Source of the DNA: Escherichia coli
GTDB lineage: Bacteria > Pseudomonadota > Gammaproteobacteria > Enterobacterales > Enterobacteriaceae
NCBI RefSeq assembly: GCF_003991155.1
Contig: NZ_CP031293.1
Length of the DNA stretch: 64,000 nucleotides
Direction: 5' to 3' (one strand)
The first letter of the stretch is position 1, and the number at the start of each line of letters is the position of its first letter. The position numbers and the translations under genes are program-made. Below, piece by piece: positions 3,791 through 60,479 of the stretch. The notes beneath the pieces were generated by a model. The model searched no databases, was not told where the DNA came from, and worked only from the letters and a program-made list of their open reading frames with translations.

Positions 3791-6700
3791 GTGAAGTTTT
3801 TTGCCCTCTTCATTTACCGCCCGGTGGCGACGATTTTACTGTCGGTCGCCATTACCCTGTGCGGCATACTGGGTTTCCGTATGCTGCCAGTCGCCTCGCT
3901 GCCGCAGGTCGATTTTCCGGTGATCATGGTCAGCGCCTCGCTGCCCGGTGCGTCACCAGAAACAATGGCGTCTTCCGTTGCCACGCCGCTGGAGCGCTCA
4001 CTTGGGCGCATTGCCGGAGTCAGCGAAATGACCTCCAGCAGTTCGCTCGGCAGCACGCGCATTATTTTGCAGTTTGATTTTGACCGGGATATCAACGGCG
4101 CAGCGCGCGATGTGCAGGCGGCGATCAACGCCGCGCAAAGTCTGCTACCCAGCGGGATGCCCAGCCGTCCGACCTATCGCAAAGCGAACCCATCGGATGC
4201 GCCAATTATGATCCTCACGCTGACATCCGATACTTATTCGCAGGGTGAACTGTACGATTTCGCCTCGACACAGCTGGCTCCGACAATTTCGCAAATCGAC
4301 GGTGTCGGTGATGTCGATGTCGGCGGCAGCTCACTGCCCGCCGTACGCGTCGGGCTGAATCCGCAGGCGCTGTTTAATCAGGGCGTCTCGCTGGACGACG
4401 TACGCACTGCCATCAGCAATGCCAACGTGCGTAAACCGCAGGGCGCACTGGAAGATGGCACCCACCGCTGGCAGATCCAGACCAATGACGAACTGAAAAC
4501 TGCCGCTGAATATCAGCCGCTAATTATTCATTACAACAACGGCGGAGCGGTTCGTCTGGGCGATGTGGCGACGGTGACCGACTCAGTACAGGATGTGCGC
4601 AACGCCGGGATGACCAACGCCAAACCGGCTATTTTGCTGATGATCCGCAAGCTGCCGGAAGCCAATATTATCCAGACGGTAGACAGCATCCGCGCCCGTC
4701 TGCCGGAATTACAATCCACCATCCCGGCAGCAATTGATCTGCAAATTGCCCAGGATCGCTCCCCTACTATCCGCGCGTCGCTGGAAGAGGTTGAGCAGAC
4801 GCTGATTATCTCGGTGGCGCTGGTGATTCTGGTGGTGTTTTTATTCCTGCGCTCGGGTCGCGCCACTATTATTCCCGCCGTTGCGGTGCCGGTTTCGCTG
4901 ATTGGTACGTTTGCGGCGATGTACCTGTGCGGATTCAGTCTCAATAACCTTTCGTTAATGGCACTCACCATCGCTACTGGTTTCGTGGTGGATGACGCCA
5001 TCGTGGTGCTGGAAAACATTGCCCGTCATCTGGAAGCGGGGATGAAACCGCTACAGGCCGCGCTACAAGGTACTCGCGAAGTCGGCTTTACGGTGCTGTC
5101 GATGAGTCTGTCACTGGTGGCGGTGTTCCTGCCGCTGCTGTTGATGGGCGGATTGCCGGGTCGCCTGTTACGCGAGTTTGCCGTGACGCTTTCTGTCGCC
5201 ATTGGTATTTCGTTGCTGGTTTCCCTGACGTTAACGCCGATGATGTGCGGCTGGATGCTGAAAGCCAGCAAGCCGCGCGAGCAAAAGCGACTGCGTGGTT
5301 TTGGTCGCATGTTGGTAGCCCTGCAACAAGGCTATGGCAAGTCGCTGAAATGGGTGCTCAATCATACCCGTCTGGTGGGCGTGGTGCTGCTTGGCACCAT
5401 TGCGCTGAATATCTGGCTGTATATCTCGATCCCGAAAACCTTCTTCCCGGAGCAGGACACAGGCGTACTGATGGGCGGGATACAGGCTGACCAGAGTATT
5501 TCGTTTCAGGCGATGCGCGGCAAGTTGCAGGACTTCATGAAAATTATCCGTGACGATCCGGCGGTGGATAATGTCACCGGCTTTACTGGCGGTTCACGGG
5601 TGAACAGTGGAATGATGTTTATCACGCTTAAACCACGCGGCGAGCGGAGCGAAACGGCCCAGCAAATTATCGACCGTCTGCGGGTAAAGCTGGCGAAAGA
5701 GCCGGGGGCGAATCTGTTCCTGATGGCGGTACAGGATATTCGCGTTGGCGGACGTCAGTCGAACGCCAGCTATCAGTACACGTTACTGTCCGACGACCTG
5801 GCGGCACTGCGCGAATGGGAGCCGAAAATTCGCAAAAAACTGGCGACGTTGCCGGAACTGGCGGACGTGAACTCCGACCAGCAGGATAACGGCGCGGAAA
5901 TGAATCTGGTTTACGACCGCGACACCATGGCACGGCTGGGAATCGACGTGCAGGCCGCCAACAGCCTGTTAAATAACGCCTTCGGTCAGCGGCAAATCTC
6001 GACCATTTACCAGCCGATGAACCAGTATAAAGTGGTGATGGAAGTGGATCCGCGCTATACCCAGGACATCAGTGCGCTGGAAAAAATGTTCGTTATCAAT
6101 AACGAAGGAAAAGCGATCCCGCTGTCGTATTTCGCTAAATGGCAACCGGCGAATGCCCCACTATCGGTGAATCATCAGGGATTATCGGCGGCCTCGACCA
6201 TCTCGTTCAACCTGCCGACCGGGAAATCGCTCTCGGACGCCAGTGCGGCGATCGATCGCGCAATGACCCAGCTTGGTGTGCCTTCGACGGTGCGCGGCAG
6301 TTTTGCCGGCACGGCGCAGGTGTTCCAGGAGACGATGAACTCGCAGGTGATCCTGATTATCGCCGCCATCGCCACGGTGTATATCGTGCTGGGTATCCTT
6401 TACGAGAGTTACGTACATCCGCTGACGATCCTCTCCACCCTGCCCTCGGCGGGCGTTGGTGCGCTGCTGGCGCTGGAGCTGTTTAATGCCCCGTTCAGCC
6501 TAATCGCCCTGATAGGAATCATGCTATTAATCGGCATCGTGAAGAAAAACGCCATTATGATGGTCGATTTTGCGCTCGAAGCCCAACGGCACGGTAACCT
6601 GACGCCGCAGGAAGCTATTTTCCAGGCCTGTCTGCTGCGTTTTCGCCCGATTATGATGACTACCCTGGCGGCGCTGTTTGGCGCGCTGCCGCTGGTGTTG

Positions 6701-8284: not shown

Positions 8285-9684
8285 AGTTCTGGCGACCCGG
8301 TATTACCGGCAAACTGTTTCTGGCGATTTTCGCCACCTGCATTGTCTTGCTGATCAGTATGCACTGGGCGGTGCGTATCAGTTTTGAGCGTGGCTTTATT
8401 GATTACATCAAGCATGGTAATGAACAACGGCTGCAAATGCTCGGCGATGCGCTTGGTGAGCAGTACGCCCAGCACGGGAACTGGCGCTTCCTGCGTAATA
8501 ACGATCGCTTTGTATTTCAGATCCTACGTTCGCTGGAGCATGATAACAACGAAGATAAGCCCGGCCCCGGTATGCCGCCACACGGCTGGCGCACGCAATT
8601 CTGGGTGGTTGATCAAAACAACAAAGTGCTGGTTGGCCCGCGAGCACCGATTCCACCAGACGGCACACGGCGGCCCATTATGGTCAATGGGGCGGAAGTG
8701 GGTGCGGTGATCGCCTCCCCTGTTGAACGACTGACCCGCAATACCGATATCAATTTTGACAGACAACAGAGGCAAACCAGTTGGCTGATTGTCGCTTTAT
8801 CTACCTTGTTAGCGGCGCTGGCGACATTCCCACTGGCGCGCGGTTTGCTGGCTCCGGTCAAACGACTGGTGGACGGTACACACAAACTGGCAGCGGGCGA
8901 TTTCACTACTCGCGTAGCCCCCACCAGCGAAGATGAGTTGGGCAGACTGGCAGAGGATTTCAATCAACTCGCCAGCACACTGGAGAAAAACCAGCAGATG
9001 CGCCGCGATTTTATGGCCGATATCTCCCACGAGCTGCGCACGCCTTTAGCGGTACTGCGCGGCGAACTGGAAGCTATTCAGGATGGCGTGCGTAAATTCA
9101 CGCCGGAGACGGTGGCTTCTTTACAGGCAGAGGTCGGTACACTGACCAAACTGGTGGATGATCTTCATCAATTGTCGATGTCTGATGAAGGCGCTCTCGC
9201 CTATCAAAAAGCACCGGTAGATTTGATCCCACTGCTGGAAGTGGCGGGCGGCGCATTTCGCGAACGATTCGCCAGCCGTGGCCTGAAACTGCAATTTTCC
9301 CTGCCAGACAGTATTACCGTATTTGGCGATCGCGACCGTTTAATGCAGTTATTCAATAACTTACTGGAAAACAGCCTGCGCTACACTGATAGCGGCGGTA
9401 GCCTGAAAATCTCTGCCGAGCAGCACGACAAAACGGTGCGCCTGACCTTTGCCGACAGTGCACCGGGCGTTAGTGACGATCAACTGGAAAAATTGTTTGA
9501 GCGTTTTTATCGCACCGAAGGTTCCCGCAACCGTGCCAGCGGCGGTTCCGGCTTGGGGCTGGCGATTTGTCTTAACATTGTTGAAGCACATAATGGTCGC
9601 ATTGTTGCCGCTCATTCGCCTTTTGGCGGGGTAAGCATTACAGTAGAGTTACCGCTGGAACGGGATTTACAGAGAGAAGTATGA
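8281..9684 (+). CDS. baeS: BaeS envelope-stress sensor histidine kinase (467 aa)
   Basis: HAMP region, H-box (SHELRTPL) and N/G1/G2 ATPase boxes (GGSGLGLAI). 4-nt overlap with mdtD. Confidence 0.95.
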
Positions 9685-10403
9685 CCGAGTTACCAATCGA
9701 CGAAAACACGCCACGTATTTTGATCGTGGAAGATGAACCGAAGCTGGGGCAGTTGCTTATTGATTATCTGCGTGCTGCGAGCTATGCGCCGACGCTTATC
9801 AGCCACGGCGATCAGGTACTGCCATATGTGCGCCAGACACCACCGGATCTGATCCTGTTGGATCTGATGCTCCCTGGCACCGATGGCCTGACGTTGTGTC
9901 GGGAGATTCGTCGTTTTTCTGACATTCCGATCGTGATGGTGACAGCAAAAATCGAAGAGATCGACCGCCTGCTCGGGCTGGAGATTGGCGCAGATGATTA
10001 TATCTGTAAGCCGTACAGCCCACGGGAAGTGGTAGCGCGCGTCAAAACCATTTTGCGCCGTTGCAAACCGCAGCGCGAGTTGCAGCAACAGGATGCTGAA
10101 AGCCCGTTGATTATCGACGAAGGTCGTTTTCAGGCTTCATGGCGCGGAAAAATGCTTGACCTGACGCCTGCGGAATTTCGTCTGCTGAAAACGCTCTCTC
10201 ATGAACCAGGAAAAGTGTTCTCCCGCGAGCAATTGCTCAATCATCTTTATGACGACTACCGCGTAGTAACCGACCGCACCATCGACAGCCACATTAAAAA
10301 CCTGCGCCGCAAGCTGGAATCTCTCGACGCCGAACAGTCATTTATCCGCGCCGTTTACGGCGTCGGTTACCGCTGGGAAGCCGACGCCTGCCGCATCGTT
10401 TAA
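9681..10403 (+). CDS. baeR: BaeR OmpR-family response regulator (240 aa)
   Basis: Receiver domain (ILIVEDE..DLMLPG) plus a winged-helix OmpR C-terminus. 4-nt overlap with baeS. Confidence 0.95.
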
Positions 10404-11421: not shown

Positions 11422-11718
11422 GTGCGTACTATAAAACTCATGCCAAAAGCCAATGAGGATTTAGAAGGCATCTGGTATTACAGCTATCACCATTTCGGCG
11501 AACCACAAGCCGACAGATATGTGGAACATCTTTCAGACGTTCTCCAGATTCTGAGTAACAATAATATAGGTACGCCCAGACCTGAATTAGGCGAAGGTAT
11601 TTTTGTTCTTCCTTTTGAACGCCACGTAATTTATTTCCTGCAATCGCCAGAGGAAATTATCGTCATTCGTATCCTTAACCAAAACCAGGACGCCTCCAGA
11701 CATTTACACTGGAGCTAA
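11422..11718 (+). CDS. ParE/RelE-superfamily type II toxin (98 aa, GTG start; ATG at 11440 is the alternative)
   Basis: ParE-like pattern (..A..DLEGIWYY.......A.RY...L......L......G.PR.EL..G......H.I.Y......I.I.RIL....D). Tightly coupled to the upstream ParD. Confidence 0.8.
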   Translation: MRTIKLMPKANEDLEGIWYYSYHHFGEPQADRYVEHLSDVLQILSNNNIGTPRPELGEGIFVLPFERHVIYFLQSPEEIIVIRILNQNQDASRHLHWS

Positions 11719-11820: not shown

Positions 11821-13182
11821 ATGTTTAAACCGGAACTCCTTTCCCCGGCGGGAACGCTGAAAAATATGCGTTACGCTTTCGCTTATGGCGCAGATGCTGT
11901 TTATGCGGGCCAGCCGCGTTACTCCCTGCGTGTGCGCAACAACGAATTCAACCACGAAAATCTCCAGCTCGGCATCAATGAAGCCCACGCGCTGGGGAAA
12001 AAGTTTTATGTCGTGGTCAACATTGCACCGCACAACGCCAAGCTGAAAACCTTTATCCGTGACCTGAAACCGGTGGTGGAGATGGGGCCGGATGCGCTGA
12101 TTATGTCCGATCCAGGGCTGATTATGCTGGTGCGCGAGCACTTCCCTGAAATGCCGATCCACCTCTCGGTGCAGGCTAACGCCGTGAACTGGGCGACGGT
12201 GAAATTCTGGCAGCAAATGGGACTGACCCGCGTGATCCTCTCTCGCGAGCTGTCGCTGGAAGAGATTGAAGAGATCCGTAATCAGGTGCCGGATATGGAG
12301 ATCGAGATCTTCGTTCACGGTGCGCTGTGCATGGCCTACTCCGGTCGCTGCCTGCTCTCTGGCTATATCAACAAGCGCGACCCGAACCAGGGCACCTGCA
12401 CCAACGCCTGCCGCTGGGAGTACAACGTCCAGGAAGGGAAAGAAGATGACGTTGGCAACATCGTGCACAAGTACGAGCCGATTCCGGTGCAAAATGTTGA
12501 GCCGACGCTGGGCATCGGCGCGCCAACCGACAAAGTGTTTATGATCGAAGAAGCTCAGCGTCCGGGCGAGTATATGACTGCGTTTGAAGATGAGCACGGC
12601 ACTTACATCATGAACTCGAAAGATCTGCGCGCTATCGCCCACGTTGAACGCCTGACCAAAATGGGCGTGCATTCGCTGAAAATCGAAGGTCGTACAAAAT
12701 CTTTCTACTATTGCGCACGCACCGCGCAGGTTTACCGTAAAGCTATCGATGACGCAGCTGCGGGAAAACCATTCGATACCAGCCTGCTGGAAACTCTGGA
12801 AGGTCTGGCGCATCGTGGCTATACCGAAGGTTTCCTGCGTCGTCATACTCACGACGATTATCAGAACTACGAATACGGTTATTCAGTTTCTGACCGCCAG
12901 CAGTTTGTTGGTGAGTTTACCGGTGAGCGCAAGGGCGACCTCGCGGCGGTAGCGGTGAAAAATAAATTCTCCGTTGGCGACAGCCTTGAGCTGATGACGC
13001 CGCAAGGGAACATTAACTTTACCCTTGAGCATATGGAAAACGCCAAAGGCGAAGCAATGCCGGTCGCACCGGGCGATGGTTATACTGTGTGGATCCCGGT
13101 GCCGCAGGATCTTGAGCTAAATTACGCGCTGCTGATGCGTAATTTCTCCGGGGAAACCACGCGTAACCCCCACGGTAAGTGA
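11821..13182 (+). CDS. yegQ: YegQ (TrhP), U32-family peptidase-like protein (453 aa)
   Basis: Full-length U32 family sequence (MFKPELLSPAGTLKNMRYAFAYGADAVYAGQPRYSLR...). Confidence 0.9.
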   Translation: MFKPELLSPAGTLKNMRYAFAYGADAVYAGQPRYSLRVRNNEFNHENLQLGINEAHALGKKFYVVVNIAPHNAKLKTFIRDLKPVVEMGPDALIMSDPGLIMLVREHFPEMPIHLSVQANAVNWATVKFWQQMGLTRVILSRELSLEEIEEIRNQVPDMEIEIFVHGALCMAYSGRCLLSGYINKRDPNQGTCTNACRWEYNVQEGKEDDVGNIVHKYEPIPVQNVEPTLGIGAPTDKVFMIEEAQRPGEYMTAFEDEHGTYIMNSKDLRAIAHVERLTKMGVHSLKIEGRTKSFYYCARTAQVYRKAIDDAAAGKPFDTSLLETLEGLAHRGYTEGFLRRHTHDDYQNYEYGYSVSDRQQFVGEFTGERKGDLAAVAVKNKFSVGDSLELMTPQGNINFTLEHMENAKGEAMPVAPGDGYTVWIPVPQDLELNYALLMRNFSGETTRNPHGK

Positions 13183-13266
13183 TTAATTTCGATTATTTTT
13201 CCCGGATGGAAAATTCTTAGAAACCGATCACATACAGCTGCATTTATTAAGGTTATCATCCGTTTC

Positions 13267-13353
13267 GCTGAAAAACATAACCCATAAAATGCTAGCTGTA
13301 CCAGGAACCACCTCCTTAGCCTGTGTAATCTCCCTTACACGGGCTTATTTTTT
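13267..13353 (+). ncRNA. cyaR: CyaR (RyeE) Hfq-dependent sRNA
   Basis: GCTGAAAAACATAACCCATAAAATGCTAGCTGTACCAGGAACCACCTCCTTAGCCTGTGTAATCTCCCTTACACGGGCTTATTTTTT matches the CyaR sequence as I remember it, including the terminator hairpin and U-run. It has the expected position after yegQ. Confidence 0.85.
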
Positions 13354-27905: not shown

Positions 27906-28706
27906 TCACCACCAGGCGTGGAAGTGGTGAACCGGACCAATACCGTGACCAACTTCCAGCGTGTCGGCCTGGGCTAACGCCGATGAAAGCCAGCTTTTTG
28001 CCTCCTGTACGGTGTCAGCCCAGTTTGTATGGCGCGGGCGCAGTGCAGCCAACGCCGCAGAGAGCGTACAACCAGTGCCGTGAGTGTTTTTGGTCATAAT
28101 GCGCGGTGCGGTAAACCGTTGTTCACCCTCGCGGGTAAACAGCCAGTCCGGGCTTTGCTCATCATCCAGATGACCACCTTTCATTAGCACTGCGCCACAG
28201 CCCATCGCCAACAGCGATCGCCCTTGTTCCAGCATTTCCTGTTCGGTGCGCGCGTGTGGCGCGTCGAGCAAGGCGGCTGCTTCGGGCAAGTTTGGCGTTA
28301 TTAATGAAACATGTGGCAATAATCGACTGCGTAGCGTGGCAACTGCCGAAGGTGAAAGCAGCGGGTCGCCGCTTTTTGCCAGCATAACGGTGTCGAGTAC
28401 CACGTTTTGGATCTGATAACGTTGCAACCGTTCTGCCACCGCTTCAACAATATCGGTTTCCGCCAACATACCGATTTTAGTGGTGTCGATTCGCACATCA
28501 CTGAACACCGAATCGAGCTGGGCGGCGACAAAATCAGGCTCAATGCGATACACCGACTGTACGCCACGGGTATTTTGCGCCACCAGTGCAGTAATCACTG
28601 AGCAACCATAAGCGCCAAGTGCCGAGAAGGTTTTAAGATCGGCCTGAATCCCCGCACCACCACTCGGATCAGTACCGGCAATCGTCAGAGCGTTAATTCG
28701 TTTCAT
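27906..28706 (-). CDS. thiD: ThiD hydroxymethylpyrimidine/phosphomethylpyrimidine kinase (266 aa)
   Basis: MKRINALTIAGTDPSGGAGIQADLKTFSALGAYG is the canonical ThiD N-terminus. Confidence 0.96.
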   Translation of the reverse strand: MKRINALTIAGTDPSGGAGIQADLKTFSALGAYGCSVITALVAQNTRGVQSVYRIEPDFVAAQLDSVFSDVRIDTTKIGMLAETDIVEAVAERLQRYQIQNVVLDTVMLAKSGDPLLSPSAVATLRSRLLPHVSLITPNLPEAAALLDAPHARTEQEMLEQGRSLLAMGCGAVLMKGGHLDDEQSPDWLFTREGEQRFTAPRIMTKNTHGTGCTLSAALAALRPRHTNWADTVQEAKSWLSSALAQADTLEVGHGIGPVHHFHAWW

Positions 28707-28729
28707 GCCTGCACCTCCTGCGTCAATTG

Positions 28730-29491
28730 TCAGAGCGCATCAAGGAAATGTGGAACAAAACTGCCTGGCCCCTCGCTTCTGGCAACTGCGCGTTCTCCGG
28801 CTTGTTTCATCCAGTGACAGGCAGATGCGATATTTTCCAGCGTATCGCCTGGTAGCGCACAACAGGCAGCGACAACCGCCGATAATGCACAGCCAGTTCC
28901 TACCACTTTGGTCATTAGCGGATCGCCACCGTGAATGCCAACGATACGATGTCCATCGGTAACATAATCCACCTCGCCAGTGACCACGACGATTGCGCCA
29001 GTTTCCCGTGCCAGTGTTTGTGCAGCAGGTATCGCGTTAGCTGCGGCATCAGTGGTATCCACTCCCCGTCCGCCATTAGCAACGCCAGCTAATGCCATGA
29101 TTTCCGAAGCATTACCACGTATGGCGGTTGGCTTATGAGACAGAAGTTCCAGACAAAAACGGCGGCGATAATCGAGTGCACCCACCGCTACTGGATCAAG
29201 CGTCCAGGGTGTTTGAGAGCGTTTTGCCTGTTCAACGGCGGCACGCATCGCCTGTGCGCGTGGCTGCGTCAGCGTGCCAACGTTAATCAGCAACGCACTG
29301 GCGATTGCCGCAAACTGACTGGCCTCTTCGGTTTCGATGACCATCGCTGGCGATGCACCGAGCGCCAGTAAGGTATTGGCAGTAAAGGTTTGCACCACAT
29401 CATTGGTCATACAGTGCACAAGGGGGGAATGTTTGTGAAAAAGATGTAACGCGTGCGCAGATTGCGCGGAACTCAGCAGGTCGACTTGCAT
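28730..29491 (-). CDS. thiM: ThiM hydroxyethylthiazole kinase (253 aa; ends at an in-frame TGA 27 nt before the thiD-overlapping stop)
   Basis: [39 protein letters not shown]... The riboswitch lies directly upstream. Confidence 0.93.
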
Positions 29492-29625
29492 AGTTTGCTC
29501 CTGCCATAACGTGAAGAAGCAATGACCTGGTGGTCCGTGACTTCCCTACGCTGGCATTATCCAGATCAGGTGATACGGGTATTTCTCAGCCTTCACGCAG
29601 AAGGGCACCCCGAGTCGTTTGGTTG
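29492..29625 (-). promoter_or_regulatory. thiM TPP (thi-box) riboswitch: aptamer plus SD-sequestering expression platform
   Basis: The minus strand reads ..AACCAAACGACUCGGGGUGCCCUUCUGCGUGAAGGCUGAGAAAUACCCGUAUCACCUGAUCUGGAUAAUGCCAGCGUAGGGAAGUCACGGACCACCAGGUCAUUGCUUCUUCACGUUAUGGCAGGAGCAAACUAUG. This is the well-studied E. coli thiM riboswitch sequence. Confidence 0.93.
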
Positions 29626-29837
29626 AATCTCTATATTTTGTGCCAGCTTAGGGGAAGTGGCTTGCAGATGCAAGCTCGCCTCCATTAATTGCTTCTTCTC
29701 TGTGTACCCCATTTTGTACCCCATATCAGAAATGAAAAAGAAACATTTAACATCTATCATTCAGATGATAAAAACTATTGATTATCTTAATTTGCTAATT
29801 TATATTATTTATCTAAATTTGATAGGTGAGATAAAAA

Positions 29838-30077
29838 ATGACAGAAACCCAGATCTACGAGAACATTAAGCAAGCCATTAGCAGCGCACCACGAAATAGC
29901 CAAACGATGGAAATGCACCTCCAGATGATCAAATATGCTGACCATCTGAAAAAGGTTACGGCAAAAGAGTTTTGTGAAGGTGTAGGACTTAAAGCCAGCT
30001 TTGGTACAGAGTTCAGCAAAATGAGAAATCTTACCGAGCGACTCAAAGCTGCTGGACTTGACACCACGAAGTTATAA
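29838..30077 (+). CDS. Hypothetical small protein (79 aa), island-borne
   Basis: ORF preceded by an AT-rich promoter-like region and GGTGAGATAAAAAATG. No family recognised. Confidence 0.5.
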   Translation: MTETQIYENIKQAISSAPRNSQTMEMHLQMIKYADHLKKVTAKEFCEGVGLKASFGTEFSKMRNLTERLKAAGLDTTKL

Positions 30078-30242
30078 AAAACAAATCATCAATATATTAT
30101 TTTTGTTTTCCAGACTTACTTGCATATGTTTCTACGAGCATAAAAAACAACAACCACCACATAGCTATTACCATAATAATGTTTTCCTTTTATATTAAAC
30201 AGAGAAATAGAATTAGAGCGTGGAATAGATGAATTCTATTTT

Positions 30243-30488
30243 CTATAACTTCTTGAGGTTGAATGTAGAAAAAGACAGCTCTTTCATTTCAATAACACCG
30301 AAATTTGATAGCTGTTTCAGCCAGAATTTTAAACCTGACTCAGAGCAACCTGCTCGATGTAACACATCGCTATATTTTAGCGGTGTTGGCTTTCCTTTAT
30401 AGAGGTAAACAAGCGTTTCGTAGGTGTGTTTTCCGGTGTCGTTACACTGAATGCGGTCTACTTGATTTTTTACTAAATATTGGATCAT
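30243..30488 (-). CDS. Hypothetical small protein, possible winged-helix DNA-binding protein (81 aa)
   Basis: ORF starts 12 nt downstream of the stop of the 239-aa gene, with an AGGAGGA RBS. wHTH-like segment (YSDVLHRAGCSESGLKFWLKQLSNFGVI). Confidence 0.5.
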   Translation of the reverse strand: MIQYLVKNQVDRIQCNDTGKHTYETLVYLYKGKPTPLKYSDVLHRAGCSESGLKFWLKQLSNFGVIEMKELSFSTFNLKKL

Positions 30489-30499
30489 AGTCCTCCTTA

Positions 30500-31219
30500 T
30501 TAAAATGGAATGTCAAAATCGTCCTCTTCTGTCTCAGGTATCGTGTATATATGTTCTCTTCCTGTAAATTCAGAAACCACTATTGAAATTAGCCTGTATG
30601 CCTCTATTTTATCGCCCTGCGTTTCAGCTAAAGCCCACTCAAGGGCTGCTTCTGTTGGCTGTCCATTCGGTTTGCAAATAGTGACACCGCCCCAAGGAAG
30701 CTCTGTTTTTTCCTGCTGAATAGAGCGTGTTGTTTCTAGTGTTTTTTTATCTTCCGTAGGGGGAAGCTGTTCAGGAACAGCTTTAACAGTAGATACTTGC
30801 TCTGTCTGTGGCTTTTCTGCATTTACAGAGGCTTTCGCTTCTCTTGGTGCTGTAATATGTGCATCTGTAAAGGGTAATGCTTTATAGAGTGATGTTTGAC
30901 CGTGGCGTGCCTCTACAGAAAGAACTCCCATATCAACAAACATATTTATAATATTGCGTACCTGACGATCACTAACCATTCCAATATTAGCTAATGTTTT
31001 TTGAGTAGCGTAACATTCTTGCCCTTGTTCATTGAATCCAGCTATATAGCTATAGATTTCAACGGCTGGCAGTGTAGCGGTGTATTCATTACCAGATGGT
31101 GAGTACCATTTTTTAAACATCTTCAACCATTGCTCAACAACTACATATTTTTGTTTACCATCTTTCTGATTTAGACATTTGGCTTTCGCTTCGGCAATTG
31201 TTTTGATATTTTTGATCAT
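30500..31219 (-). CDS. wHTH replication-initiator-like protein with a Pro/Glu/Lys/Thr-rich (likely disordered) linker and an SSB-tip-like C-terminus (239 aa)
   Basis: HTH segment ATQKTLANIGMVSDRQVRNIINMFVDMGVL, typical of phage/plasmid O/DnaD-like N-terminal wHTH proteins. The C-terminus is ...ETEEDDFDIPF. Confidence 0.6.
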   Translation of the reverse strand: MIKNIKTIAEAKAKCLNQKDGKQKYVVVEQWLKMFKKWYSPSGNEYTATLPAVEIYSYIAGFNEQGQECYATQKTLANIGMVSDRQVRNIINMFVDMGVLSVEARHGQTSLYKALPFTDAHITAPREAKASVNAEKPQTEQVSTVKAVPEQLPPTEDKKTLETTRSIQQEKTELPWGGVTICKPNGQPTEAALEWALAETQGDKIEAYRLISIVVSEFTGREHIYTIPETEEDDFDIPF

Positions 31220-31343
31220 TTAGTTCCTCCTTTGTAAGGACTGTAATTAGTAGTTCATTAACAAGTTTTGGAATTGATTTCCCTTCTGCCTTTGCGCGAT
31301 TTAACAACGCGTTATAAGTTGCAGAGTCAAAATTAATATTCAT
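31155..31343 (-). CDS. Ribbon-helix-helix (Arc/CopG-like) small protein (62 aa)
   Basis: MNINFDSATYNALLNRAKAEGKSIPKLVNELL is an RHH-like pattern. GGAGAGGAGAA RBS lies 7 nt upstream of ATG 31343. The 3' end overlaps the next gene by 65 nt, so the exact extent is uncertain. Confidence 0.5.
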   Translation of the reverse strand: MNINFDSATYNALLNRAKAEGKSIPKLVNELLITVLTKEELNDQKYQNNCRSESQMSKSERW

Positions 31344-31365
31344 TTGGTTTTCTCCTCTCCTGTTA

Positions 31366-31548
31366 TTATTCTTTCTCTGCTTCTGCCTTACGCAGTTCAT
31401 CAATAATCTTGAGTGCATCGTCAAAGCATTTTTCACGCTCTGGATAACCTCGACTCCTTGCCATATTACGATTCATTACTACTTGATGTCGTGTTAACTC
31501 ACCTTTTTTAAATGCCTCTACGACGTGTTCCGGTATAAACCATTTCAT
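31366..31548 (-). CDS. Hypothetical small protein (60 aa), first gene of the leftward island operon
   Basis: AAGGAG RBS 7 nt upstream. Candidate promoter TTGACA-N17-AATAAT on the minus strand at 31687-31659. Confidence 0.5.
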   Translation of the reverse strand: MKWFIPEHVVEAFKKGELTRHQVVMNRNMARSRGYPEREKCFDDALKIIDELRKAEAEKE

Positions 31549-33312
31549 AAAAAACTCCTTATTCAGTTAAAAGAAAAACACCTTGCAAGCCTGACGGCTT
31601 CAAAGTGCATTGATTTTGATTATTTAGAGAAGAATGTTTTTCTGTCCCTCTAGTACCTATTATTACATATAAATAAACATTTGTCAATATCTTTTCATAA
31701 AAAATCAGAACCTTTTCATGCACTTACATTTTTTCTTAGCGATTCGTGCTCTCCTGTGTAGTGCTATTCTTCATTACCAGCTAAAACGCTCTAAAACGCG
31801 TTCTAACGAAGTTTTGATAAAAGCAATACATTCTCTTATGTAATGGCTGTTTAGCTCGCCAGAGGCTTATTTAAGTGGCTTATTTTGTATTTGTTAGATG
31901 ATGATAGATATAAAACAGAGAGTTCTTAGATTAGTTACTTTATAAAACGCTCTGTAAAGCCCTGTAGTGAGTTTATATATGTAGGCAAAGCGGTTTCCAT
32001 TCTCTACCCTGCTTAATGCTGTTAGAGAAGCATTTAGACCCCTTATTTTTAATTACCTAAAGTATCCTCTATACATCTCTGTTATGAAACACCTCTGAAT
32101 CCTTCATAAAACACATTATGACGCAAAGAACACTTTTCTAAGGTGATTCCCTTCCTGAACTCTGTTTCTTGCGTCAGAGAGCTACACAGAGAGCTTATAA
32201 AGCTATTATTAATAATAAAGTAGATAAAGTAAGTAAGATAAGTAAGAAGATTAACTAAGATAGATAAGATTAATAAGATCAGAATTCTCTTTCGGTGTCG
32301 CCTCTGGCTTTTCCACCGAAAACAATTACACGACTACAGAATGTAGGAAGTGAAATTGTATTGAGGCTTAGTGAAATTACACGAGGAAAGCAGAGTGTAA
32401 TTGAGCTTTAGCCGCTCTCTCTTCGAGTAATTACACAACTACAGAGAATAACAGAGTTATTAAATGTAGGAGGGTAATTAAGAGTTAGAGAGAGTTAACA
32501 CGTAAGCAATCAGATGATTGGTTAGGTGATTACTCTTACTGCGCACAGCGCAATAGTATTCCTTCGTGGGCGTTACCGCCAACGATAGTTACACGAAGAA
32601 AGTAACGCTTTGCTTTCGGTGTGAGCGGAACGGGCCAGCCACAAAGCCCGAAAGGTAGCGGAGTAAGGCTGCTTGCCAGAGAGTGGAGCTAACGCCGGAA
32701 GGCAAAAGATCATATATATAGTATAAAGAATATTATTTAATTATAGTATTGGTGGAACTCATTACCTAAGGTAAACCGGAGACCACTTCCAACGGTTAGG
32801 CAACCACTTCCAATTGTGTTATTTCCCCTTTTACCCTAAGTAAATTTTAGCCTTTCGTTACATCCATTTATCACATAGCACTTACCCTGTGTAAATCATA
32901 GAATAATGCTCTCTATTCCCTGTGTAATTCCATACTAAAAAATTCAATGAAAAGTAGTTTAAAAGTGCAATGTTAGCTTTCTTCACTTTTACATCACTTT
33001 CGCTGCGCCTTGTGTAATGCGGCTTACAGAGCACTATCAGAAATTATTGATCAAAAATCAACCTATTATTTGTCGAACAAGTTTTCTTTAATGCAACAAA
33101 AATTATTTTTTCAAAATAAACACACAATTTAATAGCTTGCTAATTTTACCAAAATGTAACTACATGATTCTCATGCAAGAAGTGTAGTGATAAGGCAGGC
33201 TAAATCACCACACTAAAAAACTTCGAATTTCGTAGTGAAAAAAGTACTTTACACACCTAATCAACACGCCCAATAATCACTACACACAAATCAATACAGA
33301 AGAAAAAAGAAG
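31549..33312. other. 1.76-kb ORF-free, motif-dense region: candidate replication origin and/or structured ncRNA locus
   Basis: No ORF of 60 aa or more in any frame. ATTACAC/GTGTAAT heptamers occur in both orientations (32325, 32376, 32430 / 32395, 32922, 33012, and variant 32889). There is a C-poor TAAG-rich tract (32211-32280), a GC-richer hairpin-rich core (about 32520-32700) and a pure AT stretch (32711-32750). Confidence 0.5.
33182..33213. promoter_or_regulatory. Candidate recombinase binding (res-like) site: GTGTAGTGAT-N12-ATCACCACAC
   Basis: 10-bp inverted half-sites (1 mismatch) lie 100 bp upstream of the serine recombinase gene. Further half-site copies are at 33230 (+) and 33276 (-). 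Confidence 0.4.
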
Positions 33313-33864
33313 ATGGCTAATATTGGATACATTAGGGTATCGACTGTGCAACAAAACACAGACCGTCAATTAGCAGGAGTAACTCTTGATAAAGTCTTTG
33401 AAGATAAAGCGTCAGGCAAGAACACTCAGCGCCCACAGTTTGAGGCAATGATGAACTATGTGCGGGAGGGTGACGTGTTACACGTCCATAGTATTGATCG
33501 CCTTTGTCGTAATACAGCCGACCTTCTGGCAACTGTAGAGCAATTAACAAAGCGCGGCGTGTCTGTGCATTTCCATAAAGAAGACTTTAAGACAGGAAAG
33601 AACTCTCCCGCAGGGAATATGATGCTCACAGTTCTTGCAGCAGTGGCACAAATGGAACGTGAAATGATGCTTGAGCGTCAACGTGAAGGGATCGCCGCAG
33701 CCAAGGCCGCTGGACGTATAGCAAAACGTGGTAATGGAAAAGCAATTGATCGAGCGGGAATTGCTGCCGCTCTCGCGAATGGTGGCTCAATTCGGAGCGT
33801 AGCAAAAGATTTCAGTGTCAGCACGCAGACGGTGCAACGTATCAAGAAAGAGCAGGTGGCGTAA
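33313..33864 (+). CDS. Small serine recombinase (resolvase/invertase family, 183 aa)
   Basis: MANIGYIRVSTVQQNTDRQ catalytic-Ser motif, the D..HVHSIDRL.R motif, and a C-terminal HTH (SIRSVAKDFSVSTQTVQRI). Confidence 0.88.
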   Translation: MANIGYIRVSTVQQNTDRQLAGVTLDKVFEDKASGKNTQRPQFEAMMNYVREGDVLHVHSIDRLCRNTADLLATVEQLTKRGVSVHFHKEDFKTGKNSPAGNMMLTVLAAVAQMEREMMLERQREGIAAAKAAGRIAKRGNGKAIDRAGIAAALANGGSIRSVAKDFSVSTQTVQRIKKEQVA

Positions 33865-34030
33865 TGCCTCCTTGATATTTGACAGGGACGGTCGGCAAAA
33901 ATCGGGGCTTGCTGATCTCAGCGTTGAGCGGTTCTTGCAATGGTGCCTAGGTGCTCGCTTGTATTCCCCTTCGATAATCACCACTAAGCCACTTATTGCC
34001 TTGTGGAGTGGCCCGAAAATTACTGATATC

Positions 34031-34495
34031 TTATTGATTCAGTCGATCCCATTTAACCGCAGATACAATTCCCCAATTACCACTAGCATTAGGCCTACGC
34101 CACTTCGCGGTTTCCATTCCACGAAGGTATTCGAGAGCTTCATTGAACGAACTGAAACGTTTCTGGGCTGATTTTTCCCCTACTCTAAACGAACCATCGC
34201 GAGTACTTGCCAATCCTGGATGAAAACACGACCCATCTGCAGCATAAGGAACAAGTACCTCCTGATCATCAGGTTTCCTTGAATCAGAAGCCAGTAACTG
34301 CCAAGGCTCAATACGCAAAGCGTCAGCCAGAACCTCAATTGCATCAAGAGATGCATTAGAGCAACCACGCTCAATTCGACTCATATAACTACGTGCAAAA
34401 CCACACCGATCTGCAAAGGCCTCTTGGCTTAAGCCAATAGCTATACGGAACTCTTTTACTCGTTGTCCAAAAAGGTATCTCAGATTCTTTCGCAT
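34031..34495 (-). CDS. XRE-family HTH regulator with an uncharacterised C-terminal domain (154 aa from MRKNL)
   Basis: HTH_3 pattern (LFGQRVKEFRIAIGLSQEAFADRCGFARSYMSRIERGCSNASLDAIEVLADAL), then about 85 aa with no recognised family. Confidence 0.75.
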   Translation of the reverse strand: MRKNLRYLFGQRVKEFRIAIGLSQEAFADRCGFARSYMSRIERGCSNASLDAIEVLADALRIEPWQLLASDSRKPDDQEVLVPYAADGSCFHPGLASTRDGSFRVGEKSAQKRFSSFNEALEYLRGMETAKWRRPNASGNWGIVSAVKWDRLNQ

Positions 34496-34605
34496 GGCAC
34501 AAAGATGCAATTTGACGCACCAATTAACCACGCACTAATCGTGACATTTTGAATCAATCATGTATTATTAGCATCACCATCCATTTGACACACCAAGGGA
34601 GACAA

Positions 34606-34953
34606 ATGAAAAAACTAGTATTTGCCGCTTTGTTAATTCCAGTGATGGGCCACGCCACAACCTTTTCCTGTAAAGCAATACAGGAAGGTCATATTGACTC
34701 GGGAAGTCAGAAAGTTTCTGTAGATTCAACTTTTGATATACAAGATAAAAAAATGACCATAAATCTTGGCGGTAAAACTTGGAGACTTGATTTGGTAGGT
34801 CAAAAAAGCATCGCAAAGATGTATGCTACACCTGACGGAGGGGTTGCAGCCACATACATTGACAATGGCAGTATACCGATATTTGTATTACGCCCTTCTA
34901 ATCCCGATGGGGAGATGGCTGTTTACACATTGAGTATGTGTTCTGAAGTATGA
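34606..34953 (+). CDS. Small secreted protein of unknown function (115 aa)
   Basis: Signal peptide MKKLVFAALLIPVMGHA/TT, AAGGGAG RBS, and a terminator directly downstream. Confidence 0.6.
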   Translation: MKKLVFAALLIPVMGHATTFSCKAIQEGHIDSGSQKVSVDSTFDIQDKKMTINLGGKTWRLDLVGQKSIAKMYATPDGGVAATYIDNGSIPIFVLRPSNPDGEMAVYTLSMCSEV

Positions 34954-34959
34954 TTGATC

Positions 34960-34983
34960 GGCGTGATATTCACGCCGTTTTTG
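34960..34983 (+). terminator. Rho-independent terminator
   Basis: GGCGTGA-TAT-TCACGCC followed by GTTTTT. Confidence 0.7.
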
Positions 34984-35030
34984 GGGAAATTTGTATATTG
35001 AAAAATATAGAAATAGAACTTTTATCAAGC

Positions 35031-35756
35031 CTATTTATTAACAGGTAGTAATGTCAGATCGCCATAATGGGCTTGTCTATGGCAATTAGGACATAATGCA
35101 ATAGCATTTTCCACAGAGTCCTCCCCCCCCTTTGAAAGCCACTCAATATGATGAACTTCTAGAAATGGAGTACCATCTTCCTTTAGAAAAGGAGCATCTC
35201 GCTTACAATATTGACATTTTCCATTTGCACTCAAAAGAACTTCAGCAACTACATATGGGCTTCGTTTATAAACTCGTGTTGTTACTTCGATTAGTTCCGG
35301 GATTTTACTTTCTGTCGCTAAAATTTGCTTTCGTTCCACTGAAGATAATTTTGCAGCCGTCTCAACAGCTTCTTCGAAAACCGATTTTACTTGACGATAA
35401 CGCCACATCCCTTCTAAATCCTGGTATAATTCCCAAATACCGTGCACAGATGGTTGATAGATTTCAAAAATATTTCCACGCTTGAACAATCGGTCATACT
35501 TATGATGCCGATGAGTTACATCATCAGTTCGTCGGGCAGTTTTGTTGAAACTCCAGTAGCTCCGCTTACAATTAACTGTATTAGCAATTAAATTGAGCCA
35601 AGTATTATCTTTATAAGATGGAAATAGCTTTCTAAGATAATCATCTACCTGCTTAGCCGTTGCAGCCCCACCAAACTGATTAGCAATTATCTGTATGGTA
35701 ATAGCTCTTATCGGTTGATCGCCATACTTGTATTTTTTGCCTAAATTTTTAACCAT
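35031..35756 (-). CDS. HNH nuclease with a roughly 160-aa uncharacterised N-terminal domain (241 aa); candidate type IV-like restriction/defence nuclease
   Basis: C-terminal HNH: CQYC...FLEVHHIEWLSKGGEDSVENAIALCPNCHRQAH (McrA-like beta-beta-alpha-Me with CxxC...CxxC). The N-terminal region is not recognisable. Confidence 0.75.
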   Translation of the reverse strand: MVKNLGKKYKYGDQPIRAITIQIIANQFGGAATAKQVDDYLRKLFPSYKDNTWLNLIANTVNCKRSYWSFNKTARRTDDVTHRHHKYDRLFKRGNIFEIYQPSVHGIWELYQDLEGMWRYRQVKSVFEEAVETAAKLSSVERKQILATESKIPELIEVTTRVYKRSPYVVAEVLLSANGKCQYCKRDAPFLKEDGTPFLEVHHIEWLSKGGEDSVENAIALCPNCHRQAHYGDLTLLPVNK

Positions 35757-35884
35757 AGAAGACTCACTAAGCCTAAATTCATCTTAAGTTATTATTGTAA
35801 ATTAGTTGTGAAAATTTTTGATCTCAGACAATAAAAATCTACAAATTATTAGCTGGTTATACACTAAGAAGGATACACGAATAA

Positions 35885-37192
35885 CTAAGTCTCCCAACAA
35901 AGACCATCGATCACATAACAAACGGTGGAAAGTGGGAATGTGTGCAGATAACGCTGGGTAATCCCTACTCCACTCTTTTCATGACCTACCACCTGTTGCA
36001 GATGCGCCAAATTACTCACCCAACCAGCTAAACAAGTAGAAATCATAGTATGCCGGAAACTATGCACCAAGCGCCGCTGCCCATAATCATCAAGATAAGG
36101 AATATCAAGCTGATCACGAACATCTGAAAGAACTTTACCTATCTTTGACATATTTCGACCTGAGACTTCCGAAAAGATTTTCTCTTTCCATTGGCGGTTA
36201 ACAAAATCCAGAAACCCCCACTCAATCAGTTTGGGATGAATCACTACCTGTCTTGTAGCATTCTCAGTTTTACCCAGCCTTCTTTCCGCGATCAGAAGAT
36301 AGTGCCGCTGGCTATCTTCATCAAATTTGATCTGCGACTTCTCCAGTTTAGCAATCTCACCTCTTCTGGCTCCTGTGTACGCCAACAACAAAGTGATCCA
36401 CTTCTGCCATCCATCAGGCTGCTTTAGTGCCCATCCTACAAATTTTTTCATTTCTGCTGCACTGTATGCACCAAACCTAGCTTTGGATGGTGCCGCTACT
36501 ATTCCATCAGTCGGAGACTTAGATAGAATATCTTTGTTTTCAGTCAGAAATGTTTTGAATAACGATTTGTAGATTTTAAGGTGCTTATGTACAGCCTCAG
36601 CACCAACTAAATCCTCTGGCAGCACATCATCACATTCGATTAGTTGCTGAATAGTCATTGACCTATACGGTTGCACTACACGCTTTGGTAAGTTTTCGAC
36701 AGTTTCCATTACTCGCTTAATATCTTGTTTGGTGATTGCCGTTACGTCTGTTTCTTTTCCCAAGACAACAAGCAATACCTCCATATAACGCTCATTTGCC
36801 ATTGAGATCGATTTTGTCCAATTTCGACCTCTTTCCTCCTTGTACATAGCCCACGCATCAGCAAGTGTTAGCACCTTTTCCGGTTTGGCTGGTGGTTGAA
36901 GCTGCAAAACTTCTTTAGAAATATTGTTCAATTGCTGAGGGAGTGGCAACGGAATCATTACGTTACGTGACGAAGCGATCAAGTTTGAAACAAACTTATT
37001 AAATTGTGGCAACGGAGTAGCGAGTGATTTAACGAAAGGAATGTGCGGAGTAAGGCCAATCATCAACGCCGATGCTTCGCGATAACTGTCAGTAAAAAGT
37101 GATTTTTTGTATATCCGACCATCCGAAAGCCGGATTTGTAGATAGTAATTACCGTTTCGCTGAAATGTGTATGGGAGAGTTCTTGACCTCAT
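35885..37192 (-). CDS. Tyrosine recombinase / phage-type integrase (435 aa from MRSRTLPYTF)
   Basis: Catalytic region ...TGARRGEI...HSFRHT...GHEKSGVGITQRYLH (R-H-R-Y). AGGGGG RBS before ATG 37192. Adjacent to the right att repeat. Confidence 0.9.
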   Translation of the reverse strand: MRSRTLPYTFQRNGNYYLQIRLSDGRIYKKSLFTDSYREASALMIGLTPHIPFVKSLATPLPQFNKFVSNLIASSRNVMIPLPLPQQLNNISKEVLQLQPPAKPEKVLTLADAWAMYKEERGRNWTKSISMANERYMEVLLVVLGKETDVTAITKQDIKRVMETVENLPKRVVQPYRSMTIQQLIECDDVLPEDLVGAEAVHKHLKIYKSLFKTFLTENKDILSKSPTDGIVAAPSKARFGAYSAAEMKKFVGWALKQPDGWQKWITLLLAYTGARRGEIAKLEKSQIKFDEDSQRHYLLIAERRLGKTENATRQVVIHPKLIEWGFLDFVNRQWKEKIFSEVSGRNMSKIGKVLSDVRDQLDIPYLDDYGQRRLVHSFRHTMISTCLAGWVSNLAHLQQVVGHEKSGVGITQRYLHTFPLSTVCYVIDGLCWET

Positions 37193-37275
37193 AAACGCCC
37201 CCTTTTTGTACCTTAACAGCATGATTTATGGTCAAAAAGAGATACAACCACATAATTTTCAAGACTATTTTGGCC

Positions 37276-37357
37276 CCCTACGCTGGCATTATCCAGATCA
37301 GGTGATACGGGTATTTCTCAGCCTTCACGCAGAAGGGCACCCCGAGTCGTTTGGTTG
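37276..37357 (-). promoter_or_regulatory. Second (orphan) copy of the thiM TPP aptamer, on the native promoter side of the island
   Basis: 100% identical to 29544-29625. It lacks the ..AAGUCACGG.. continuation and the expression platform, and is followed 83 nt later by the integrase start codon. Confidence 0.85.
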
Positions 37358-37445
37358 CGATGATAAATCGCAAAGGAGGATGGTAATGTCCAGCGCACGC
37401 GTTGTAAACGAGGAAAAACGGCAGTTTTACAATCGCGTTAATAAA

Positions 37446-37838: not shown

Positions 37839-38648
<810 letters not shown>

Positions 38649-60396: not shown

Positions 60397-60479
60397 GTTG
60401 GAACACGATGTTGCACAGGCTGCGGCGTTGGGCCTGAAAATAGTAAATAAAAGAACCTGCCTCACCAGCAGGTTTTTTT
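60397..60479 (+). ncRNA. orzO: Orz-type antitoxin sRNA (about 83 nt)
   Basis: Consensus promoter upstream. Terminator AACCTGC-CTCACCA-GCAGGTT plus T7 at 60454-60479. The 5' 20 nt (GTTGGAACACGATGTTGCAC) repeat the plus-strand sequence at 60231-60250 with 1 mismatch, so they are complementary to the toxin 5' UTR. Confidence 0.72.

Follow-up and report, generated by a model that had tools for sequence, protein, structure and literature searches.

The thiM locus and its insertion

The 64,000-nucleotide stretch of Escherichia coli DNA analysed here (the window; contig NZ_CP031293.1 of assembly GCF_003991155.1) contains an island in the spacer between thiM and rcnR, and the island is flanked by two copies of the thiamine pyrophosphate (TPP) riboswitch aptamer of thiM. 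The riboswitch-controlled gene thiM (28703-29491) and the following thiD (27906-28706), both placed by annotation of an identical locus, lie on the minus strand to the left of the island, and rcnR (minus strand) and rcnA (plus strand) lie to the right. The element is very probably a small site-specific integrative island, belonging to a family whose tyrosine integrase uses the thiM aptamer as its chromosomal attachment site (attB).

A repeat search found a single direct repeat of 82 nt with 100% identity, at 29544-29625 and 37276-37357 (spacing 7732). A perfect repeat of this length cannot be a chance match. The island body between the copies (29626-37275, 7,650 bp), delimited by alignment with K-12 and by its low content of guanine and cytosine (GC), carries its integrase gene (int) on the minus strand, co-directional with thiM. 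The GC content is about 0.53-0.55 in the flanks and 0.33-0.45 between the repeats. Repeat search and GC profile thus agree with the first-pass annotation, which was made from the sequence alone and had described two identical 82-bp copies around 7,650 bp of AT-rich DNA. Its identification of the repeat as the core of the thiM thi-box, the TPP aptamer, also holds, as both copies exceed the Rfam gathering score for the TPP family RF00059 (54.3 bits).

The thiM-proximal copy (29544-29625, minus strand) comprises aptamer nt 1-82, and the Rfam match extends over 29526-29622 with 71.2 bits. Its P1 helix is complete, and together with the native bases after it the copy constitutes the whole thiM TPP riboswitch. 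The sequence equals that of K-12, and the closing helix P1 is linked to the expression platform. The int-proximal copy (37276-37357, minus strand; Rfam match 37259-37354, 61.3 bits) has the native thiM promoter upstream and int downstream. The 3′ strand of its P1 consists of island sequence, two of the five P1 pairs are non-canonical, and the link between P1 and the expression platform is lost; the relatives described below keep no 3′ strand at this position.

Alignment of the thiM-rcnR spacer with K-12 MG1655 shows one aptamer copy and no island, as had been expected. The K-12 spacer corresponds to the left flank of the window, 82 bp, and the right flank, with two point differences, one in each flank. 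Across E. coli, the 100-nt aptamer occurs at 5,713 places in 5,424 genomes, with a median of 1 and a maximum of 3 per genome, so island-free genomes do not typically carry two copies. The K-12 alignment and this census rule out a chance repeat or a native duplication. No tRNA or tmRNA adjoins the island in the Rfam search, and such a gene is thus rejected as the true target. At least 80% of the window segment 29000-38000 is contained in 80 of 5,426 complete E. coli genomes, and the 30 best matches listed are identical to the window over the full 9 kb. One of the 5,713 aptamer places sits on a record classed as a plasmid.

The tyrosine integrase (35885-37192, minus strand) comprises 435 aa from the annotated start at 37192; the longest open reading frame (ORF) starts at 37222. 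The first-pass annotation had placed a tyrosine integrase next to the right-hand repeat, and the ORF indeed begins 84 nt from it. The protein matches PF00589 over residues 270-428 (29.4 bits, cutoff 27.1) and the phrog_1 integrase family (95.1 bits). The catalytic motifs TGARRGE, HSFRHT, VVGHEK, and QRYLH were recognised by inspection of the translation, with no formal alignment to solved enzymes.

The thiM gene of the window has a nonsense change, TGG to TGA, in codon 254 (base 28730), by which the final 9 residues are lost. This stop lies just ahead of the overlap between thiM and thiD. It is missing from K-12 and from the otherwise identical carrier 2016C-3878.

Related islands at the same target

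A scan for the integrase in one genome per bacterial species yielded 52 loci, of which 32 belong to Enterobacterales and have 64-84% identity. The fetched loci of relatives are designated by L numbers, and the far end of an island was judged only where it lies inside the fetched flank. In 29 of the 32 Enterobacterales loci, int is preceded on its own strand by an aptamer copy that ends at nt 80-82. The distance from aptamer to int is about 85 nt in every locus with an intact int start. A second aptamer copy follows 3.4-11.3 kb downstream and continues into the native P1 strand, and in 14 loci it is followed by thiM-thiD. The search for homologous integrases beside thiM leaders that the first-pass annotation had proposed is therefore positive, and the homologous islands are bounded by the same repeat, with thiM-thiD after the second copy where the far end was reached.

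The hosts represent 19 genera including Escherichia: Buttiauxella, Lelliottia, Enterobacter, Dryocola, Serratia, Silvania, Leclercia, Pseudenterobacter, Atlantibacter, Citrobacter, Klebsiella, Pantoea, Rahnella, Franconibacter, Erwinia, Winslowiella, Mangrovibacter, and Kosakonia. The islands are 3.4-13 kb in size, and the cargo between the copies varies. Since the upstream neighbours vary by genus, the aptamer and not the gene neighbourhood is recognised. Tandem arrays and mosaics are common in the family. Enterobacter nematophilus has two islands in tandem on one contig (L018 and L007), and int-proximal copies are often preceded by the end motif of another island (L003, L005, L009, L013, L023, L026, L031). 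Two island types, A and B, are distinguished by their ends, and in L011 and L021 an integrase junction of type A is paired with a distal end of type B. Decayed relatives also occur, for example L021, L044, L051, and L052.

Within E. coli, relatives of the integrase are present in 221 of the 5,426 complete genomes, and every match is chromosomal. Nucleotide identity is at least 99% in 67 genomes, 95-99% in 58, 80-90% in 16, and 60-80% in 80. The two E. coli relatives that were inspected, L055 and L056, both lie between rcnR and thiM and differ in cargo. The occupation of the E. coli site by several distinct lineages suggests that the family is active now or was so recently.

The insertion is clean, the link between integrase and aptamer is family-wide, the cargo is variable, the arm repeats are fixed in position, and the 5′ half of the aptamer is island-derived. 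That the integrase catalyses the insertion event is the likely explanation of this pattern.

Arm-type sites

The 64-kb window has exactly two occurrences of the motif TGTACCCCAT, located at 29703 and 29715. These two putative arm-type repeats of the int-distal arm (29703-29724) read GGGGTACA on the minus strand. On the other side, TGTACC is found at 37207-37212, within a weaker arm-type-like site on the minus strand, AAGGTACA (37207-37214), 20 nt upstream of the int start codon. Type A relatives have GrGGTACA at -112, -100, and -88 relative to the start of the thiM-proximal aptamer copy, and also at -22 and +2 from the int ATG, with all sites in one orientation. The site at -22 is GAGGTACA in most type A relatives, and the site at +2 is either GGGGTACA or GAGGTACA. 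About 94 kb of island interiors contain no GrGGTACA at all. An analogous repeat triplet, GGGACACA, is present in type B islands. The arm-type integrase sites proposed in the first-pass annotation are thus kept at fixed positions at both island ends and are missing from the interiors, which is consistent with the putative role assigned to them.

Probable recombination core and target geometry

The two aptamer copies of the window are identical, the island copy having evidently been homogenised to the E. coli sequence, and the position of the crossover was examined in relatives whose copies differ. One such relative is E. coli EC20-72C-1 (L055), where the promoter and the entire int-proximal aptamer match the native sequence at 100%. 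On the thiM-proximal side of L055, the aptamer has a foreign 5′ part, ATCTTCATGACTC..., with CCCCATCAATGATGGG as P3, and is native only after P3. Within one genome, the copies differ as far as about nt 41 (L055), about nt 52-55 (L013, L023, and L052), or about nt 69 (L004). Type B copies remain identical to the attB or native sequence up to nt 80, and type A copies up to nt 82. Because of where the copy differences and the identity end, the crossover is placed in aptamer nt 56-80, CCTGATCTGGATAATGCCAGCGTAG (29546-29570, and 37278-37302 in the other copy; minus strand). This region corresponds to the P4/P5 arm, where the thi-box is most conserved. In type B, a near-perfect inverted repeat, GGATAATGCCAG-CGTAGTC-CTGGCGATTATCC, has the core as its left arm and looks like a recombinase core. 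A palindrome, GGCCnAAAnTnGGCC, follows the core in the relatives and co-varies among them.

The foreign 5′ part in L055 indicates that the int-distal end of the island brings in the 5′ part of the aptamer. With the island-borne 5′ part and the host 3′ part joined, carriers therefore have a chimeric riboswitch before thiM. A crossover at the 5′ edge of the repeat, the classical geometry, is ruled out by the copy differences in L055, L013, L023, and L052. The attachment geometry of tRNA islands, with the 3′ part from the island beside int, is likewise absent, the island part of L055 being the 5′ part and distal to int.

Two proposals of the first-pass annotation are modified by these results. 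The TPP aptamer is supported as the target of integration, but the recombination core probably comprises about 25 bp (nt 56-80) and not the whole 82 bp. The island also carries its own copy of the target, as had been suggested by analogy with tRNA-targeting islands, but the geometry is mirrored: the 5′ part is replaced, and thiM is cut from its promoter.

A mechanism can be proposed on this basis. Within the P4/P5 arm (aptamer nt 56-80), the integrase would join the circular island to the chromosome by recombination, assisted by the arm-type sites (GrGGTACA) on either side of the attachment site of the element (attP). The island would supply the 5′ part of the aptamer (the P1 5′ strand, P2, and P3) at its int-distal end. 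After insertion, thiM-thiD would follow a complete chimeric riboswitch, and the host promoter with the host 5′ part would read into int.

Inverted leader copy in the distal arm

In the distal arm of the window island, the 3′ part of the thiM leader is partially repeated in inverted orientation (TGCCAGCTTAGGGGAAGT ... ATTGCTTCTTC; 29641-29698, plus strand), as detected by local alignment against shuffles. Both island types have such a copy between the arm repeats and the aptamer copy. In type A it is made up of inverted nt 69-86, a hairpin, and the inverted expression platform, and in type B of inverted nt 46-88. The observed score was reached by 9 of 2000 shuffles in the window and by 0 of 2000 in L006, L007, L015, L016, L031, and L011. 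The inverted segment ends at the crossover region proposed above, which hints that it was born by recombination in inverted orientation. Strict co-variation of the inverted copy with the host platform was considered and rejected, as it holds in L007 and partly in the window and fails in L006 and L015.

Predicted expression of thiM-thiD and int after insertion

The native thiM promoter-like site, TTTACA-17-TACCAT (37380-37408, minus strand), was located by promoter scan and is identical to the sequence upstream of the aptamer in K-12. It is the only consensus promoter near the junction on the int strand, and int is probably transcribed from it via the int-proximal aptamer copy. The replacement of the 5′ part of the target by the island cuts thiM-thiD off from this promoter. 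Next to the second copy, both genes are full length in ten loci, which represent at least ten host species; in L044, ThiD matches and ThiM does so only partly, and L007 ends before thiD. Full-length thiM-thiD in this position fits continued expression.

A consensus promoter for thiM at the island end was rejected after scans of the window, L006, and L016, and a weak conserved candidate is left. This candidate, TTGCAT-17-TAAGCT (29645-29673, minus strand), is below the threshold of the promoter scan. Its hexamers and 17-nt spacing are kept across type A ends, including those of the diverged L012, L013, and L028, and an island-borne promoter of this kind may drive thiM-thiD. Just before the distal arm repeats, L006 (15145-15166) and L016 (13325-13345) have terminator-like hairpins on the thiM strand, which make cargo read-through into thiM unlikely.

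The int leader of the window (37201-37241, minus strand) has a predicted helix in the centroid fold, in which the ribosome-binding site of int, AAAAAGGG, is paired with an upstream U-tract. The same helix is present in the consensus fold of 15 leaders and in L006, with sparse covariation. The window leader is no more stable than its shuffles (z = 0.31). With little covariation and a stability equal to that of shuffles, a switch-like structure in the int leader was rejected. Thiamine control of int is possible but unsupported.

Island genes and cargo

In addition to the integrase, the window island has a cargo gene for an HNH endonuclease (35031-35756, minus strand), similar to type IV methyl-directed restriction enzymes (Pfam HNH, 48 bits; PADLOC mREase_IV, 81.6 bits). 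An XRE-type helix-turn-helix regulator (34031-34531, minus strand) matches Pfam HTH_31/HTH_3 and a PADLOC control protein (59.5 bits). A serine DNA invertase or resolvase is encoded on the plus strand (33313-33864; Pfam Resolvase, 133 bits; phrog_125 DNA invertase, 208.6 bits). An HTH_36 protein (30500-31219, minus strand; Pfam, 25.1 bits) is weakly similar to O-like and DnaD-like phage replication initiators, with matches to phrog_270, phrog_186, and phrog_345 at E values of 1e-5 to 4e-7. At the int-distal end lies a small HTH_73 protein (29838-30077, plus strand; Pfam HTH_73, 105.9 bits), which is common to islands of Enterobacter, Serratia, and Atlantibacter at 92-94% (tblastn; L005, L008, L015). 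Several small ORFs are also present.

The cargo of the relatives includes Hachiman (HamA, 400 bits; HamB, 981 bits), an Old-like ATPase, a type II restriction-modification pair, an AbiU fragment, and the same HNH protein as in the window. Matches to known defence systems are thus found both in the window and in the relatives. Judged from these matches, the cargo is anti-phage defence, and the family is one of small integrase-plus-defence islands.

An AT-rich stretch of 1.7 kb (31550-33300), nearly free of ORFs, adjoins the DNA invertase gene. It has no convincing coding similarity in the related islands. A patch at about 32537-32731 resembles island DNA of L007, L008, and L010 in several reading frames and is for this reason probably non-coding. 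An imperfect inverted repeat (30980-31002 and 33305-33327) overlaps the invertase start.

Comparison with other elements

Islands and satellites in tRNA and tmRNA genes (Williams 2002, as cited in PMC10121019; Islander/TIGER, PMC7192596) resemble the thiM islands in several respects. Their int adjoins one attachment-site copy, the target is a conserved structured RNA whose function is kept by a replacement piece, and tandem arrays and variable cargo occur. In contrast, the thiM islands target a cis-regulatory aptamer, located within a 5′ untranslated region, and not a stable RNA gene. The thiM islands also replace the 5′ part of the target, far from int, and the operon loses its own promoter.

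The dusA islands (Farrugia et al. 2015, PMC4482086) likewise replace the 5′ end of their target with island sequence. Putative promoters were described there before and after insertion, and excision was demonstrated by PCR (PMC4482086). Unlike the thiM islands, they target a protein-coding gene and use a different integrase family, and excision of the thiM islands is only presumed. Phage phiEf11 has its attachment site in ffs, the 4.5S RNA gene (PMC12540744), and is thus another tyrosine-integrase element in a structured RNA other than tRNA. It differs in its stable RNA gene target, its Gram-positive host, and its nature as a full temperate phage.

The distant integrase relatives (L032-L054), with 29-38% identity, come from marine Gammaproteobacteria. 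In 17 of the 20 distant loci, int is preceded by a full RNase P RNA gene (rnpB) of the same orientation, in many of them at most about 100 nt from the match; L035, L046, and L050 have no upstream rnpB. In L033, rnpB occupies 9566-9915 and int begins at 10001. L038 has a second, partial rnpB copy (13140-13342), 3.2 kb downstream of int. ARAGORN detected no tRNA or tmRNA beside int in the distant loci. These relatives look like an island family that targets rnpB. Its target is the 3′ end of a stable RNA gene with the intact copy proximal to int, which is the classical geometry and the opposite of that of the thiM islands. The integrase clade appears to target structured RNAs, and its enterobacterial branch appears to have switched to a riboswitch.

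The same aptamer is also used by an unrelated element. In E. coli, a satellite of about 11 kb, of the phage-inducible chromosomal island (PICI) type, enters the thiM aptamer at nt 41-53 (L094, L115, L120); one junction only is present in L090, L102, L109, L110, L116, L123, and L127. Its core is 13 bp, GAAATACCCGTAT, and in L120 the repeat lies at 401-413 and 11501-11513 with int at 603-1823. The satellite comprises genes for a 406-aa integrase, an AlpA-like excisionase, a primase, a head protease/capsid protein, and a terminase small subunit. Its integrase is unrelated to that of the window (BLASTP E = 0.5). Like the thiM islands, it uses the thiM aptamer as attB, and its int follows immediately after the promoter-proximal copy in the same direction. 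It differs in leaving the 5′ half unrestored and, as this half is not rebuilt, it destroys the thiM riboswitch. In 75 E. coli genomes the best aptamer match covers less than 80% of the query, and this satellite is probably the explanation.

Metabolite-sensing riboswitch aptamers join the conserved sequences used by mobile elements as chromosomal landing sites. Two unrelated integrases converge on one 100-nt aptamer, and one of them repairs the switch while the other destroys it. The family of the window integrase has apparently moved between RNase P RNA and the TPP aptamer, which makes it a useful case for target switching. Small "integrase-only" defence islands gain a concrete mobility module and attachment site, and the carriers provide a natural test of riboswitch regulation with a foreign 5′ half and promoter.

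Alternative explanations

Several observations weigh against an integrative island with the aptamer as attB. No excised circle or freshly emptied site is visible in these data. The window has two distal arm repeats instead of the three of its relatives, its core-adjacent palindrome is broken, and its identical copies are by themselves silent on which half the island brought. Strict scans of the window, L006, and L016 gave no consensus thiM promoter at the island end. Neither an excisionase nor a conjugation or packaging gene was identified in the window island with Pfam and PHROG. The integrase is unmatched in 50,697 phage records, and a plasmid collection gave only two matches, distant, incomplete, and with 37-42% identity; one of these records is 4.8 Mb long and therefore looks like a chromosome. 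With one distal repeat missing, a weaker int-side site, and a broken palindrome, the window island may be somewhat eroded. The missing repeat, the broken palindrome, the missing excisionase, the clearly decayed relatives, and the identity of the 30 best matches listed over 9 kb, which suggests many clonal carriers, would all suit an island that was inserted by its integrase and is now a fixed, non-excising relic inherited vertically in this lineage. Such a history is conceivable but doubtful, as the integrase ORF is intact with its catalytic motifs kept, both repeats are perfect, and several distinct island lineages occupy the site in E. coli. An element that depends on a helper, either a phage satellite or a mobilisable island, is somewhat less likely again. 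Its integrase would only insert and excise it, and helper particles or a pilus would transfer it. The small size of 3.4-13 kb, the weak replication-initiator-like protein with small regulators, and the restriction of the islands to an integrase and defence genes are in line with this, and Hochhauser et al. 2023 (PMC10121019) raise the possibility that islands of this sort are uncharacterised satellites; the aptamer is also the target of a genuine PICI-type satellite. However, the window island has no match to AlpA, primase, terminase small subunit, or capsid and thus lacks the gene set of a PICI-type satellite, and besides its absence from the phage records the integrase has a single match in IMG/VR, which lies beside another element.

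A third explanation concerns regulation. Integration might wire the element into thiamine sensing, with TPP-responsive int and excision, with an inverted leader copy that alters the control of thiM-thiD, or with both; this is improbable. The version in which the int-proximal aptamer is a working sensor, so that TPP status acting through the host thiM promoter sets int expression and hence excision, is equally improbable. It draws on the position of int, about 85 nt downstream of a same-strand aptamer copy in every intact relative, on the score of this copy above the Rfam threshold, on the native promoter-like site that now reads into int, and on the conserved leader helix predicted to hide the ribosome-binding site. 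The arrangement is nevertheless forced by the attP geometry, and the P1 3′ strand is missing with no substitute kept in the relatives. The window leader folds no better than shuffles and covariation is too sparse, and disruptive changes build up in the int-proximal copies of decayed islands. An origin of the repeat without the integrase is least probable by far. Perfect identity over 82 bp would be sufficient for RecA-mediated recombination of incoming aptamer-bearing DNA, and the homogenisation of the window copy to host sequence is compatible with such an event. A transposon target-site duplication was rejected, since the ends have no transposase, 82 bp far exceeds known target duplications, and the identity boundary is fixed. 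In 19 genera the identity block stops at nt 80 or 82, beside a homologous integrase and conserved arm repeats, which speaks for integrase-mediated insertion at the aptamer.

Prior records and minor observations

Islands at the thiM aptamer are already catalogued. The supplement on TIGER (Mageeney et al. 2020, PMC7192596) names "Eco824.15.TPP_RNA" and "Kox2.11.TPP_RNA", and these entries from E. coli and Klebsiella are either members of the present family or the PICI-type element. The supplement of Hochhauser et al. 2023 (PMC10121019) contains an E. coli "rcnR-thiM" island of 7,956 bp with 8 genes and the defence call RM_type_IV; its mobile genetic element type is given as "None", and it is not among the 41 numbered hotspots. 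This entry agrees with the window island in size, gene number, and defence call. The main texts of PMC7192596 and PMC10121019 do not mention a riboswitch, and a search of the accessible literature found no paper that describes a riboswitch as an attachment site, and no published description of these islands. Two tangential reports concern phage-encoded glutamine riboswitches and, in an oral metagenome, a phage beside a TPP riboswitch.

Elsewhere in the window, Rfam matches are the small RNA CyaR and the antitoxin RNA OrzO-P, at 13265-13350 and 60404-60479, respectively. CyaR_RyeE is also the name of an island target in the TIGER list (Kox2.33.CyaR_RyeE_RNA). A 12-nt periodic repeat at 38186-38257 encodes the histidine-rich loop of RcnA and is an ordinary feature.

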